Origin: Escherichia coli O127:H6 str. E2348/69
GTDB taxonomy: Bacteria; Pseudomonadota; Gammaproteobacteria; Enterobacterales; Enterobacteriaceae
Assembly (NCBI RefSeq): GCF_000026545.1
Contig: NC_011601.1
Strand: one strand, 5' to 3'
DNA length: 64,000 nt
Part shown: positions 31,013 to 45,900 of the stretch, piece by piece
Numbering within the stretch: position 1 is the first letter of the stretch
How the letters are laid out: each line of letters begins with the position of its first letter
Position numbers and translations under genes: made by a program
The notes under the pieces: model-generated
Told to the model about the DNA's origin: nothing
Database searches by the model: none
What the model saw: only the letters and a program-made list of their open reading frames with translations

Positions 31013-34000
31013 ATGACTATGTTCCAGTATTACAAACGATCACGGCATTTTGTTTTTTCAGCATTTATTGCTTTTGTTTTTGTCTTGTTATGCCAGAACA
31101 CGGCGTTTGCACGGGCGTCATCGAATGGTGATTTACCGACAAAAGCGGACCTGCAGGCACAACTTGACTCACTGAATAAACAAAAAGATCTTTCTGCTCA
31201 GGACAAACTGGTGCAGCAGGATCTGACAGATACATTAGCCACCCTCGATAAAATCGATCGCGTAAAAGAAGAGACAGTTCAGCTACGGCAAAAAGTCGCT
31301 GAAGCGCCGGAAAAAATGCGCCAGGCGACCGCGGCGTTAACAGCACTTAGTGATGTCGATAACGACGAAGAAACGCGCAAAATTCTGAGCACGCTTTCGT
31401 TGCGCCAGCTGGAAACTCGCGTTGCCCAGGCGCTGGACGATTTGCAAAACGCACAAAACGATCTGGCGTCTTATAACAGCCAACTGGTTTCGCTACAGAC
31501 GCAGCCCGAACGCGTACAAAATGCGATGTATAACGCTTCGCAGCAGCTGCAACAAATTCGCAGTCGTCTGGATGGGACTGATGTCGGCGAGACTGCCTTA
31601 CGTCCCAGCCAGAAAGTGTTAATGCAGGTCCAGCAGGCTTTGCTGAATGCCGAGATTGACCAGCAGCGTAAAAGCCTGGAAGGGAACACTGTCTTGCAGG
31701 ATACCTTGCAAAAGCAGCGTGATTACGTGACGGCGAACAGCGCCCGTCTGGAGCACCAGTTACAACTGTTGCAAGAAGCGGTAAACAGCAAGCGCCTGAC
31801 TTTAACCGAAAAAACGGCGCAGGAAGCTGTCTCCCCGGATGAAGCCGCGCGTATTCAGGCTAATCCGCTGGTGAAGCAGGAACTGGAAATTAACCAGCAG
31901 TTAAGTCAGCGTCTGATTACCGCGACTCAAAACGGTAATCAGTTGATGCAGCAAAACATTAAAGTCAAAAACTGGCTGGAGCGTGCGCTGCAATCGGAAC
32001 GTAATATTAAGGAGCAGATTGCCGTTCTGAAGGGCAGTCTGCTGTTGTCACGTATCCTGTACCAGCAACAACAAACACTCCCCTCGGCAGATGAACTGGA
32101 AAACATGACCAACCGCATCGCGGATTTGCGTCTCGAACAGTTTGAAGTCAACCAGCAGCGTGACGCGCTGTTCCAGAGCGATGCGTTCGTCAGCAAACTG
32201 GAAGAAGGTCACACCAACGAAGTCAACAGCGAAGTTCACGATGCATTATTGCAAGTAGTTGATATGCGTCGCGAATTGCTGGATCAGCTTAACAAACAGT
32301 TGGGTAACCAGCTGATGATGGCCATTAACCTGCAAATCAACCAGCAGCAGTTAATGAGTGTGTCGAAAAACCTGAAATCCATCCTGACGCAGCAAATTTT
32401 TTGGGTGAACAGTAACCGCCCGATGGACTGGGACTGGATTAAAGCGTTCCCGCAAACGCTGAAAGATGAATTTAAGTCGATGAAAATCACGGTGAACTGG
32501 GAAAAAGCCTGGCCCGCCGTATTCATCGCCTTCCTCGCTGGTTTGCCGCTGCTGTTGATTGCCGGGCTGATCCACTGGCGTCTGGGCTGGCTGAAAGCGT
32601 ATCAACAAAAACTGGCTTCCGCTGTGGGTTCCCTGCGTAACGACAGCCAGCTCAACACACCAAAAGCGATCCTTATCGACCTGATCCGCGCACTGCCGGT
32701 GTGCCTGATTATTCTCGCTGTCGGCCTGATTCTGCTGACTATGCAGCTCAATATCAGCGAGTTATTGTGGTCGTTCAGCAAAAAACTGGCGATTTTCTGG
32801 CTGGTATTTGGCCTGTGCTGGAAAGTGCTGGAGAAAAATGGTGTTGCCGTGCGTCACTTTGGTATGCCGGAACAGCAGACCAGCCACTGGCGTCGGCAAA
32901 TTGTCCGCATCAGCCTCGCGTTGCTGCCGATCCATTTCTGGTCTGTGGTGGCAGAACTCTCCCCGCTGCATTTGATGGATGATGTGCTGGGGCAGGCGAT
33001 GATTTTCTTCAACCTGCTGCTGATTGCCTTCCTGGTGTGGCCGATGTGCCGCGAAAGCTGGCGTGATAAAGAGTCGCACACCATGCGACTGGTCACCATT
33101 ACCGTGCTGTCGATTATCCCGATTGCGTTGATGGTGCTGACCGCCACGGGTTACTTCTACACCACGCTGCGCCTCTCCGGGCGTTGGATTGAAACCGTTT
33201 ATTTGGTGATCATCTGGAACCTGCTGTACCAGACGGTATTGCGCGGCTTAAGCGTAGCGGCGCGGCGTATCGCCTGGCGTCGTGCACTGGCGCGTCGGCA
33301 GAATCTGGTGAAAGAGGGCGCAGAAGGTGCCGAACCGCCGGAAGAACCCACCATTGCGCTGGAGCAGGTTAACCAGCAGACGCTGCGTATTACCATGTTG
33401 CTGATGTTTGCGCTGTTCGGTGTCATGTTCTGGGCAATTTGGTCTGATTTGATCACCGTGTTCAGCTATCTCGACAGCATTACGCTCTGGCATTACAACG
33501 CTACTGAAGCTGGTGCTGCGGTGGTGAAAAACGTCACCATGGGCAGTCTGTTGTTTGCGATTATCGCCTCAATGGTGGCCTGGGCGTTGATTCGCAACCT
33601 GCCTGGTTTGCTGGAAGTGCTGGTGCTCTCGCGACTGAATATGCGCCAGGGCGCGTCGTATGCCATTACTACCATCCTTAACTACATCATTATTGCCGTT
33701 GGTGCGATGACGGTGTTCGGATCGCTGGGCGTCTCGTGGGATAAACTCCAGTGGCTGGCGGCAGCATTATCCGTAGGTCTTGGTTTTGGTTTACAAGAGA
33801 TCTTCGGTAACTTCGTTTCCGGTTTGATCATTCTGTTCGAACGTCCGGTGCGCATAGGCGACACGGTAACCATTGGTAGCTTCTCGGGTACGGTCAGCAA
33901 GATCCGTATTCGTGCGACAACGATTACCGATTTCGATCGCAAAGAAGTGATTATCCCGAACAAAGCGTTTGTTACCGAGCGTCTGATCAACTGGTCGTTG

Positions 34001-34375
34001 ACTGACACGACTACGCGTCTGGTGATCCGTCTCGGCGTAGCCTATGGCTCCGATCTGGAAAAAGTGCGTAAAGTGTTGCTGAAGGCGGCGACTGAGCACC
34101 CAAGGGTGATGCACGAACCAATGCCGGAAGTCTTCTTTACGGCATTTGGTGCCAGCACGTTGGATCATGAGCTGCGTCTGTATGTGCGTGAACTGCGTGA
34201 CCGTAGCCGTACTGTCGATGAGCTGAACCGTACTATCGATCAGCTGTGCCGTGAAAACGACATCAACATTGCCTTTAACCAGCTTGAAGTGCATCTGCAC
34301 AACGAGAAGGGCGATGAAGTGACGGAAGTGAAACGCGACTACAAAGGCGACGATCCGACGCCAGCGGTAGGGTAA
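31013..34375 (+). CDS. mscK: Potassium-dependent mechanosensitive channel MscK (KefA)
   Basis: 1120-aa ORF with signal peptide, long coiled-coil periplasmic domain, multiple TM helices and a C-terminal MscS-like domain. Confidence 0.96.
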   Translation: MTMFQYYKRSRHFVFSAFIAFVFVLLCQNTAFARASSNGDLPTKADLQAQLDSLNKQKDLSAQDKLVQQDLTDTLATLDKIDRVKEETVQLRQKVAEAPEKMRQATAALTALSDVDNDEETRKILSTLSLRQLETRVAQALDDLQNAQNDLASYNSQLVSLQTQPERVQNAMYNASQQLQQIRSRLDGTDVGETALRPSQKVLMQVQQALLNAEIDQQRKSLEGNTVLQDTLQKQRDYVTANSARLEHQLQLLQEAVNSKRLTLTEKTAQEAVSPDEAARIQANPLVKQELEINQQLSQRLITATQNGNQLMQQNIKVKNWLERALQSERNIKEQIAVLKGSLLLSRILYQQQQTLPSADELENMTNRIADLRLEQFEVNQQRDALFQSDAFVSKLEEGHTNEVNSEVHDALLQVVDMRRELLDQLNKQLGNQLMMAINLQINQQQLMSVSKNLKSILTQQIFWVNSNRPMDWDWIKAFPQTLKDEFKSMKITVNWEKAWPAVFIAFLAGLPLLLIAGLIHWRLGWLKAYQQKLASAVGSLRNDSQLNTPKAILIDLIRALPVCLIILAVGLILLTMQLNISELLWSFSKKLAIFWLVFGLCWKVLEKNGVAVRHFGMPEQQTSHWRRQIVRISLALLPIHFWSVVAELSPLHLMDDVLGQAMIFFNLLLIAFLVWPMCRESWRDKESHTMRLVTITVLSIIPIALMVLTATGYFYTTLRLSGRWIETVYLVIIWNLLYQTVLRGLSVAARRIAWRRALARRQNLVKEGAEGAEPPEEPTIALEQVNQQTLRITMLLMFALFGVMFWAIWSDLITVFSYLDSITLWHYNATEAGAAVVKNVTMGSLLFAIIASMVAWALIRNLPGLLEVLVLSRLNMRQGASYAITTILNYIIIAVGAMTVFGSLGVSWDKLQWLAAALSVGLGFGLQEIFGNFVSGLIILFERPVRIGDTVTIGSFSGTVSKIRIRATTITDFDRKEVIIPNKAFVTERLINWSLTDTTTRLVIRLGVAYGSDLEKVRKVLLKAATEHPRVMHEPMPEVFFTAFGASTLDHELRLYVRELRDRSRTVDELNRTIDQLCRENDINIAFNQLEVHLHNEKGDEVTEVKRDYKGDDPTPAVG

Positions 34376-34435
34376 TAACCAAAGGGGGCGACATTTAGTT
34401 GCCCCGAGATTACTAACAAAGTGCGCGTTGTTCAT

Positions 34436-34533
34436 GCCGGATGCGGCGTGACCGCCTTATCCGGCCTACGAAACCGCAAGAATTCAATATATTGCAGGAG
34501 CGGTGTAGGCCTGATAAGCGTAGCGCATCAGGC
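34436..34533. repeat. BIME: two inverted REP elements
   Basis: gccggatgcggcgtgaccgccttatccggcctac (34436-34469) and gtaggcctgataagcgtagcgcatcaggc (34505-34533) in opposite orientation. Confidence 0.7.
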
Positions 34534-34586
34534 AGTTTTGCGTTTGCCCACAATCTTAGGGGACATTTAGCGGCCCCATTTATTTC

Positions 34587-34748
34587 TCACTTTTCCGCCT
34601 CATCATCGCGCGTTAATTTCTTTTCATAATCGCGTTTTACAATATCCAGCGCGCGCAGTACGGTGCGGGCTGGGATCTGATTTTCTTCCAGCAGCACAAT
34701 CAAATCGACGGCCAGTTTGACATCGTCAGGGGCATTTTCCAGTGACAT
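34587..34748 (-). CDS. ybaM: Small protein YbaM (DUF2496)
   Basis: Hand translation of the minus strand gives ~53 aa beginning [23 protein letters not shown]... and ending ...DDEAEK*; below the ORF-track length cutoff; conserved position beside priC. Confidence 0.7.
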
Positions 34749-34761
34749 ACTCTCTCCATTG

Positions 34762-35289
34762 CTAGCGGGTTAAACGCGCTAACCTGTTTTCGATTTTTTC
34801 CAGCGCATGGCGGCAGCGTGCCAGGCGCGCTTCATAGGCTTCCACTTCACGATGCAGTGTCTGCTGTTCCACGAGAGCGGTCGCTCGCGCCAGACGGGCT
34901 CTACGTTCGGCAACCATCTCACGTAGCCGCCGCTCAAAATCCTGATGCTGAATACGTTTACGCTGCCAGCGGGCAATTTTCGGTGGTGCGCTATCCCACT
35001 CGCGTAGCGACCAGGCTGTGGCTTCACGCGCTATAGCCTCCAGTTGCGCCGCCAGATGTTCTGCCAGCCAGGCGACTTGCGGCAGCTGTTGCTGCTCAAC
35101 CGCATGACGAAGCGCAGCCAGGTTATCGCCCGCCTCATCGAGACAAGCCTGTAGTGTTGTCGCACGGGTCTGAAAAAGGTGCCTGTCAAAACGGGCACTT
35201 AGCGTGGCAAATTGCGCTACCGGGGCACAACGCTGACGCAGCGTGGCGAGCTGTCCTTCCAGTTTTTCCAGTAGCAGGGTGGTTTTCAC
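34762..35289 (-). CDS. priC: Primosomal replication protein N'' (PriC)
   Basis: 175-aa [43 protein letters not shown]..., matches PriC. Confidence 0.93.
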
Positions 35290-35358
35290 GATAAGACCTC
35301 AATGAAAATGATAATTGTTATGCTAAAGTAGCCACTCTGTAAGCTGACAACACTCAAT

Positions 35359-35736
35359 ATGCAACGAATCATTTTAATCATCATTGGCTGGCTGGCGGTA
35401 GTGCTGGGTACGCTAGGCGTGGTATTACCGGTATTACCGACGACGCCGTTTATCCTGCTGGCGGCCTGGTGCTTTGCCCGTTCTTCCCCGCGCTTTCACG
35501 CCTGGTTGCTGTACCGCTCATGGTTTGGCAGTTATCTACGTTTCTGGCAGAAACATCATGCGATGCCGCGCGGCGCAAAACCACGGGCGATTTTGCTTAT
35601 TTTGATTACGTTTACGATTTCGCTGTGGTTCGTCCAGATGCCGTGGGTGCGCATCATGTTGCTGGTAATTCTCGCCTGTTTGCTTTTTTATATGTGGCGA
35701 ATTCCGGTGATTGATGAAAAGCAAGAAAAGCACTGA
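35359..35736 (+). CDS. ybaN: DUF454 inner-membrane protein YbaN
   Basis: 125-aa hydrophobic [46 protein letters not shown]... Confidence 0.92.
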
Positions 35737-45802: not shown

Positions 45803-45816
45803 GTTATCGTCGGTTC

Positions 45817-45900
45817 GTAGGCCAGATAAGGCGTTCACGCCGCATCTGGCATTTTGCTTTCAATGCCTGATGCGACGCTGGCGCGTCTTATCAGGCCTAC
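45817..45900. repeat. BIME: two inverted REP elements downstream of gsk
   Basis: gtaggccagataaggcgttcacgccgcatctggca and gcctgatgcgacgctggcgcgtcttatcaggcctac in opposite orientation. Confidence 0.65.

Follow-up and report, generated by a model that had tools for sequence, protein, structure and literature searches.

A duplicated terminator hairpin probably flanks the BIME-1 element between mscK and rsmS of Escherichia coli

In the present study, we examined the region between the convergent genes mscK and rsmS (formerly ybaM) in a stretch of 64,000 nucleotides from Escherichia coli O127:H6 str. E2348/69 (assembly GCF_000026545.1, contig NC_011601.1), which is called the window hereafter. Between the stop codons of the two genes lies a bacterial interspersed mosaic element (BIME) of the BIME-1 type, which contains a pair of repetitive extragenic palindromes (REPs), and a short hairpin motif stands on either side of it. 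The original prediction had suggested that the two motifs could be matched terminators for the convergent genes or members of a small repeat family. The locus consists of the following features, given with window coordinates, strand and the basis of each assignment.

31013..34375, plus strand: mscK coding sequence, 1120 aa, stop codon TAA at 34373-34375 (open reading frame list and annotation in matching E. coli records)
34376..34383, minus strand: outer flank of the left hairpin, the minus-strand U-rich tail entering the mscK stop codon (sequence, K-12 Term-seq end)
34384..34405, no strand assigned: left hairpin copy, GGGGCGAC-AUUUA-GUUGCCCC (fold, K-12 Term-seq end, direct repeat of 34559-34577)
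34406..34435, plus strand: left terminal segment of BIME-1, GAGATTACTAACAAAGTGCGCGTTGTTCAT (inverted repeat of 34534-34558; family consensus T(C/G)AGATTGTTGGCAAAGTGCGCGTTGTTCAT)
34436..34469, plus strand: first REP, or palindromic unit, of the inverted pair, GCCGGATGCGGCG...CGCCTTATCCGGCCTAC (inverted repeats; sub-threshold match to the REP-derived Rfam family naRNA4 at 34430-34466)
34470..34504, plus strand: long linker, or L motif (conserved among BIME-1 copies; served as search pattern)
34505..34533, plus strand: second REP, or palindromic unit, with 5' GTAG, GTAGGCCTGATAAGCGTAGCGCATCAGGC (inverted repeats; GTAGGCCTGATAAGCG at 34505)
34534..34558, plus strand: right terminal segment of BIME-1, AGTTTTGCGTTTGCCCACAATCTTA (family consensus AGTTTTGCGTTTGCCAGCAATCT(C/G)A)
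34559..34577, no strand assigned: right hairpin copy, decayed, GGGGAC...GGCCCC (direct repeat, weak fold)
34578..34596, plus strand: T-rich tract ATTTATTTCTCACTTTTCC after the right copy, overlapping the rsmS stop codon (alignment of long and short alleles)
34587..34748, minus strand: rsmS coding sequence, 53 aa, stop codon TGA at 34587-34589 (open reading frame list and annotation)

The left motif, GGGGGCGACATTTAGTTGCCCC (34384-34405), starts 8 nt past the mscK stop, and the right motif, GGGGACATTTAGCGGCCCC (34559-34577), lies 9 nt short of the rsmS stop. A repeat search returned 34387-34405 and 34559-34577 as a direct repeat of 19 nt with 16/19 positions (84%) identical and a start-to-start distance of 172 nt, which confirms the near-identity, the sequence and the placement that had been reported for the two motifs. 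They have the 9-nt loop core GACATTTAG in common. The pattern GGGGACATTTAGNNGCCCC, searched with up to 3 mismatches, gave 2 matches in the 64 kb, and at least 2 matches were obtained in 0/100 shuffled sequences. Both motifs had been taken for hairpins, and RNA folding bears this out for the left copy alone: on the plus strand it forms an 8-bp stem with -15.6 kcal/mol (z = -4.6), and on the minus strand it folds with -13.4 kcal/mol (-16.0 kcal/mol for the left copy of K-12). The fold of the right copy (-6.9 kcal/mol, z = 0.04; -6.1 in the K-12 version) is no better than that of shuffled sequence.

The tails of the two copies are distributed by strand. On the plus strand the left copy is without a T-tract and the T-rich tail is kept by the right copy, whereas on the minus strand, which is that of rsmS, the right copy is without a T-tract and the left copy is followed by a U-rich tail (CUUUGGUUA / CUUUGGUUAUU in the window strain and CUUUCGUUUUU in K-12). 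Read on the minus strand, the left copy thus has the GC-rich stem-loop and immediate U-rich tract of an intrinsic terminator. On the plus strand, the right copy does not combine the stable stem-loop, U-tract and mapped 3' end of such a terminator despite its T-rich tail. A simple promoter and terminator scan of 33800-35400 flagged neither hairpin, its criterion being 5 T in 8 and the tails falling below it. Furthermore, an Rfam search returned nothing for either hairpin, and its only matches were sub-threshold ones to naRNA4/ES036, on the REPs.

The element between the two motifs is, in itself, a standard BIME-1. Its REP arms lie at 34436-34465 and 34505-34534 in inverted orientation, and the motifs do bracket a REP pair as had been described. 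BIME-1 is defined in the literature by Y and Z1 units joined through a long conserved linker, by a length of ~140-150 bp and by an extragenic position at the 3' ends of transcription units; it is also called RIP or RIB and varies among strains as a whole unit, present or absent. Here it forms one extragenic unit between two stop codons, and it belongs to a multi-copy family. A full BIME-1 of ~150 bp reads T(C/G)AGATTGTTGGCAAAGTGCGCGTTGTTCAT, REP, L linker, inverted REP and AGTTTTGCGTTTGCCAGCAATCT(C/G)A, and the left terminal segment is common to the copies at tkt, mltA, fepA, barA and pgm. The terminal inverted repeats T(C/G)AGATTG...CAATCT(C/G)A were found at mscK in other Escherichia species, at tkt and at fepA; they are degenerate at locus L098 and in the window itself. 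In comparison with BIME-1 as described in the accessible literature, these terminal inverted repeats and the terminator copies on both sides are added features. In the L linker, ATTCAATATATTG has one mismatch against WATCAANNNNTTR, the consensus for integration host factor (IHF), and it is a candidate IHF site by its sequence. The L linker of BIME-1 often carries an IHF site (Ton-Hoang 2012).

Two strains have an altered element at this locus. In E. coli DEC9B (L004, NZ_CP074760.1, 1710-3060) the BIME is interrupted by IS621 of the IS110 family, with the transposase coding sequence at L004 1815-2795; the insertion lies directly after the GTAG of the second REP (equivalent to ~34508/34509) and is an example of REP-targeted insertion. 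In strain E69 (L008, CP089930.1, 2104-2342) both hairpins are retained together with the terminal segments of BIME-1, and the REP-linker-REP core is swapped for a GC-rich, Box C-like repeat, CCCTCGCCCC...GGGTGAGGGG. The same GC-rich repeat downstream of adk in K-12 (L212 1825-1915) ends in the BIME-1 right terminus ...CAGCAATCTCA and adjoins a hairpin with a Term-seq 3' end at 497940(+).

Transcript 3' ends at the locus were taken from the Term-seq data for K-12 (Adams et al. 2021, PMC7815308, supplementary files 1-2), a strain that differs from the E2348/69 of the window and in which the coordinate is the window position plus 455523. A strong minus-strand 3' end lies at 489902/489903, with scores of 336140 and 226826, 4-5 nt past the stem of the left copy, and the sequence around it, ...CTCGGGGCAACTAAATGTTGCCCCCTTTCG, corresponds to the minus-strand reading of the left copy. 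Transcripts from the rsmS side, and not those of mscK, therefore end at the left copy, and they cross the right copy and the BIME with a tail running into the mscK stop. An exonuclease that trims the RNA as far as the hairpin may also account for the mapped ends. For the right copy, at 4900xx-4901xx, the plus strand has no listed 3' end, so that of the two proposed terminators only the left one coincides with a mapped end. A region of Rho termination is listed at 490200(+), antisense to ybaM and further downstream of the right copy (supplementary file 2).

The locus was then compared among 5,426 complete E. coli genomes. The long allele (hairpin, BIME-1, hairpin) is present in 3,880 of these, and in most of the remaining ~28% the flanks match as two pieces that lie 172 bp closer together. 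This short allele was read in AR_0086 and U14A, and O157:H7 is in the same class. It has 38 bp between the stops, aataaaGGGCGACAGTGATGCCGCCCtttatttttt, with a single hairpin and without the BIME, the folding energies of the hairpin being -17.2 (plus strand) and -22.0 kcal/mol (minus strand). With its A-tract, GC-rich stem-loop and T-tract, it is a canonical bidirectional intrinsic terminator. When the two alleles are aligned, the left half of the short one and the flank to its left correspond to the left motif of the long one, and its right half and T-tract (tttatttttt) correspond to the right motif and its ATTTATTTCT tail. The two alleles are also old divergent haplotypes: the mscK 3' end is the same in both, and the final 30 nt of rsmS differ at ~10 positions. 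This pattern in the alignment suggests that a breakpoint of recombination, or else a polymorphism of long standing, is centred on the terminator.

For the comparison with other species, one genome per species was scanned with the MscK C-terminus as query, and 80 loci were returned. A single GGGGCGGC-loop-GCCGCCCC hairpin follows mscK in Raoultella, Klebsiella spallanzanii, Citrobacter sp. FP75 and Enterobacter sp. JUb54, and the arrangement of hairpin, BIME-1 and hairpin is found in E. albertii, E. whittamii and two further Escherichia species. The left copy of E. whittamii is a perfect GGGGCGGC-ATTTA-GCCGCCCC stem, and in those Escherichia GAGATTGCTGACAAAG and CTTTGCCAGCAATCTGAG, which stand just inside the hairpins, are mutually inverted repeats. 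By this comparison, the single hairpin is ancestral, and the long allele is apparently derived from a hairpin close to GGGGCGGCATTTAGCCGCCCC, before the split of these Escherichia species.

The left stem forms a series among these genomes, from GGGGCGGC/GCCGCCCC in E. whittamii through GGGGCGGC/GTTGCCCC in E. albertii, with two G-U pairs, and GGGGCGAC/GTTGCCCC in the window (34385-34405) to the perfect GGGGCAAC/GTTGCCCC of K-12. The changes are stepwise compensatory. The intermediates are G-U paired in the plus-strand RNA only, yet the mapped 3' end is that of the minus strand.

Further copies of BIME-1 came from three sources: E. coli genomes, a metagenome scan based on a linker and REP pattern, and 250 kb of K-12. 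Other copies are 85-90% identical over window positions 34407-34548, and 15 distinct loci were obtained, with copies 77-90% identical. At 4/15 of these loci, namely mscK, tkt, mltA/tcdA and fbaA, BIME-1 stands between two copies of a terminator hairpin that is specific to the locus. The hairpin is GGGCCGCGAAAGCGGCCC at tkt/prohibitin (spans of 157 nt when empty, 330 nt and 505 nt), GGGTGAGGGGTAACCTCACCC at mltA/tcdA (168 nt when empty and 330 nt) and CCCGCAGAGCGGG with its A-tract downstream of fbaA (163 nt when empty and 330 nt). At tkt, mltA and fbaA, true empty sites occur in other strains, with one hairpin and a single-piece match at 97-99% identity, and filled and empty alleles are found at all four loci with the duplication, the empty form at mscK being the divergent short allele. 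Smith-Waterman scores of the left flank against the right flank were 23, 34, 31 and 52 at the four loci, against a mean of 14.4 (sd 2.35, maximum 24) for 182 cross-locus pairs of flanks used as control. The duplicated length is ~19-22 bp at mscK, 18-22 at tkt, ~21 at mltA and ~36 at fbaA; the duplication therefore does not have the fixed length of a target-site duplication and varies with the hairpin from 18 to 36 bp. The canonical right terminus of BIME-1 is missing at fbaA and mltA. At tkt both hairpin copies equal the hairpin of the empty site, and the stem of the mltA empty allele (CACCC) pairs perfectly and is no chimera of the two copies in the filled allele. The flank at pgm/ybfP is itself variable among strains, which leaves a presence/absence comparison there uninformative.

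The duplicated hairpins are real 3'-end-forming sites. At mltA/tcdA, the mapped end at 2945855(-) follows the distal copy and UUUUU, and that at 2946049/50(+) follows the other copy in its reverse reading. Both fbaA copies give ends, 3070118(-) and 3069950(-); the duplicated segment there includes the tract, whereas elsewhere each copy keeps its tail on the outer side only.

Rearranged alleles were seen at two of these loci. Some strains carry a tandem hairpin-BIME-hairpin-BIME-hairpin array, for instance at tkt (the 505-nt span) or at fbaA (L159), and DG341-1 (L085 235-600) is one of these strains. Such arrays fit unequal recombination between duplicated hairpins, and the literature describes BIME-1 as a single-copy unit. 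The tkt allele of TUM11356 (L210), with a span of 319 nt, has 11 bp deleted across the junction of linker and REP (GGAAGTATGTA in L086); the deletion takes the GTA of the GTAG tag, and both flanking hairpins are intact.

We consider it very probable, from these alignments of alleles, species and loci, that the two motifs between mscK and rsmS are one bidirectional terminator duplicated on either side of a BIME-1 insertion. The ancestral terminator between the convergent genes is reconstructed as an A-tract, GGGGCGGC-loop-GCCGCCCC and a T-tract. A BIME-1 of ~153 bp would have entered at its hairpin and produced the order hairpin, BIME-1, hairpin; the target duplication would have the length of the whole stem-loop, and the long allele would consist of the terminator joined to a unit of BIME-1 and a second terminator copy. 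The proposal of matched terminators for the convergent genes holds, on this reading, as far as the motifs are derived from a terminator. They would go back to a single duplicated one, and the assignment to genes is crossed, with the left copy ending the transcripts of the rsmS side at 489902/489903(-). In each direction a transcript would meet a tail-less hairpin first, then the BIME, and end at the far copy, which would place the BIME in the 3' untranslated region (UTR). The K-12 3' end supports this for rsmS; for mscK we infer it, the right copy being decayed.

Several observations weigh against an insertion with duplication of the hairpin. The copies at mscK are only 16/19 identical, and the right one no longer folds. 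The short allele of E. coli has a different loop (CAGTGATG) and is not a simple deletion derivative of the long allele, and the last ~8 rsmS codons differ between the alleles (KKLQSDETSQSE against an 11-residue counterpart). When a synthetic query was made for an empty site with an ATTTAG-type hairpin, it gave 0 one-piece matches in E. coli, and the single-piece matches obtained were of the divergent short allele. Because the short allele is a divergent haplotype, the insertion at mscK is deduced from the outgroups and from analogy with the other loci and is not seen directly. At the level of the family, 10/15 BIME-1 loci are without a significant flanking repeat, and in six of those ten (L098, L118, L137, glnS, pgm and opgH) a hairpin adjoins one end only. 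The full-length copy at fepA/entD has neither a hairpin nor a duplication. The barA/gudD element, which is present in 5,205/5,426 genomes and is the most diverged copy, has by eye at best a decayed left copy (16/25), with a flank score of 13 that is not above the null. In addition, the fbaA repeat exceeds the hairpin by ~20 bp, mscK has C|G at its left junction and not the C|T of most junctions (see below), and transposases of the IS200/IS605-type Y1 class are described as making no target duplication. Hairpin duplication thus accompanies insertion at a hairpin, decays with age and is not obligatory.

The junctions give some indication of how the duplication could have been made. Six of the 8 junctions between element and duplication read C|T, with the C of the hairpin followed by the T of the element. 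In the empty-site hairpins the 3' foot carries C|T on either strand, with CCC|TTTTT and CCC|TTCTC at tkt, CCC|TTTTT and CCC|TGTCA at mltA and, for each of the two strands, CCC|TTTAT in the mscK short allele. In vitro, single-stranded DNA is cleaved at C^T by TnpA_REP, the Y1 transposase associated with REPs; its sites include the two sides of the inverted REP palindrome and positions hundreds of nt from the bound REP, and its cleavage leaves a 3'-OH and a 5'-phosphotyrosine (Ton-Hoang 2012). Each strand of an extruded terminator hairpin could accordingly be nicked at the C|T of its 3' foot; the element would be joined to the nicks, and fill-in of the hairpin-length gaps would give hairpin, element, hairpin. 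The candidate enzyme would be TnpA_REP, or REP-associated tyrosine transposase (RAYT), a role with which the C|T junctions and GTAG are consistent. Staggered nicking at C|T with fill-in is the course we prefer, but we put it forward tentatively, as one that may well prove wrong.

The same hairpin-BIME-hairpin structure could have been made by template switching (copy choice) during replication in place of staggered cutting, and this too we regard as possible, if rather doubtful. A nascent strand that has passed the hairpin would jump, through microhomology of the GC-rich stem, to a hairpin-BIME-hairpin donor, copy the BIME, return upstream of the target hairpin and recopy the hairpin. Length and edges of the repeat that differ by locus would be expected from such a process, and the fbaA repeat starts where the native flank TTGCTTTTGGCG resembles the right end of the element, TTTTGCGTTTGCC. 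Imprecise switching would likewise suit the right terminus missing at fbaA and mltA and the irregular junctions, with CACATCC at mltA and GC lost at the 5' end of the right mscK copy. However, the element termini at tkt and mscK are both complete, to within 1-2 nt of the hairpin, template switching does not predict C|T at 6/8 junctions, the missing termini can also be explained by later deletion or by gene conversion from the adjacent repeat, and no donor locus was identified. The missing right termini, the longer fbaA repeat and the C|G at mscK, taken together, are fitted at least as well by template switching as by nicking. The structural conclusion of a duplicated terminator around BIME-1 is independent of either mechanism. 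Two further mechanisms were rejected. A Campbell-type integration of a circle of hairpin and BIME predicts donor/target chimeras, and the two tkt copies both equal the empty-site hairpin; the 'inverted-repeat-replacing' insertion of IS1272 was considered as an analogue, and its report has no duplication.

Other readings question the duplicated terminator itself. It is unlikely that the direction was reversed, with two hairpins and a BIME as the older state and the single-hairpin alleles as precise deletions between direct repeats. Direct repeats of 18-36 bp do promote such deletions, recombination of the repeats is evident from the tandem forms at tkt and fbaA, and the long mscK allele is old, being common to E. 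albertii and E. whittamii. Reversal nevertheless accounts for the loss of the repeats and not for their origin, the loop of the short mscK allele is unlike both long-allele copies and resembles the hairpins of other genera, and the empty mltA stem is not chimeric. Very improbable is the explanation that the motifs are two separate terminators, the left for mscK and the right for rsmS, which came to be alike by selection for GC-rich hairpins or by gene conversion. Each motif does stand a few nt from a stop codon, and the left one is a stable hairpin. But a terminator does not need the shared 9-nt core, the short allele and the outgroups have a single hairpin, the T-tract is missing on the mscK strand for the left copy and on the rsmS strand for the right copy, and the 3' end mapped at the left copy is on the minus strand. 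Harder still to credit is a dispersed family of short hairpin repeats, or outer ends of a mobile element that travel with it, although the symmetric flanking of a known mobile repeat speaks for these. A regex scan of 1.47 Mb of enterobacterial DNA, which includes ~314 kb of non-redundant E. coli, found the motif nowhere outside the mscK/rsmS locus (85/85 matches were there, with two occurrences in the window), and the suggested small repeat family is thereby discarded. As for element ends, the hairpins beside other BIME-1 copies are unrelated and locus-specific, and they are also present in the matching empty alleles.

The duplicated terminator around BIME-1 can be compared with several known systems. 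Among bidirectional intrinsic terminators the short allele is a textbook case, and the left copy of the long allele still coincides with a strong 3' end; the long allele differs in that the terminator is split into two one-sided copies 172 bp apart. BIME-1 resembles miniature inverted-repeat transposable elements (MITEs) in several respects: it is short, has no coding capacity and occurs in multiple copies, it has terminal inverted repeats and direct repeats at its flanks, and its sites exist as filled and empty alleles. The duplications made by MITEs and DDE transposons have a fixed short length (2-14 bp) that is set by the enzyme, whereas the BIME-1 duplication follows the target stem-loop (18-36 bp) and is absent at the non-hairpin fepA/entD site. 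With IS200/IS605 elements and TnpA_REP, BIME-1 appears to share subterminal hairpins (the REPs) with 5' GTAG, and the C^T of the enzyme would correspond to the C|T at 6/8 junctions; in contrast, a duplication is present at four BIME-1 loci, and the family is described as duplication-free. The integration of spacers by Cas1-Cas2 of CRISPR systems attacks opposite strands at the borders of a partly palindromic repeat, with gap repair duplicating the repeat, and involves IHF in E. coli. It also has a fixed ruler length, a 33-bp insert, a dedicated locus and another enzyme family. The CRISPR repeat duplication is an analogy only to the BIME-1 footprint, with no evidence of a link.

No prior description of a terminator or hairpin duplication at BIME-1 was found in the accessible literature, which covered Ton-Hoang 2012, Nunvar 2010, Bertels & Rainey 2011, Park 2021, Delihas 2011, Di Nocera 2013, Chiapello 2005, Choe 2022 and a 2026 preprint on REPs, although the primary papers of the 1990s on BIME polymorphism may mention flanking repeats. 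The abstract of Bachellier et al. in Genetics (1997) is said to mention 'excisions of a whole BIME-1'. REPs are said in a 2011 review to be without the signatures of MITEs, and according to a 2026 preprint how REPs insert in vivo has yet to be established. The combination of terminal inverted repeats, a target duplication of stem-loop length and segregating empty alleles is possibly undescribed. The hairpin pair is an ordinary feature of the window and a useful lead when taken as the footprint of a BIME-1 insertion. REPs and BIMEs are the most abundant repeats of E. coli, and the footprint gives a clue to their insertion in vivo through its three parts, which are the duplication of a whole stem-loop, the C|T junctions and the empty alleles still in the population at four loci. 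We may speculate further, and with the same reserve as for staggered nicking, that BIME-1 and the Box C-like repeat, sharing termini, are MITE-like; that their insertion into terminators through C|T cuts duplicates the stem-loop and has left the first in vivo footprint of REP/BIME transposition; and that the Y1 transposase or a partner reads terminator hairpins as surrogate REPs and so turns one bidirectional terminator into two one-sided ones. Such an insertion leaves a working 3'-end signal on each outer side, and the BIME joins the 3' UTR without abolishing termination. The retained outer signals may explain the tolerance of BIME elements where transcription units end. In annotation, caution is advised, as the hairpin nearest to a stop codon is not necessarily the terminator of that gene.

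Two minor observations concern the surroundings of the locus. The window holds two more REP clusters, at 45811-45900 and 61790-61837, which are without the L linker and so are not BIME-1. The C-terminal tail of RsmS (window 34587-34615) is hypervariable, with TRDDEAEK in the window, TRDDEAQSEK in other Escherichia species and QSDETSQSE for the short allele; the tails of Enterobacter, Lelliottia and Kosakonia read ...PHPNPLPQGEG and look like translation into a GC-rich intergenic repeat.

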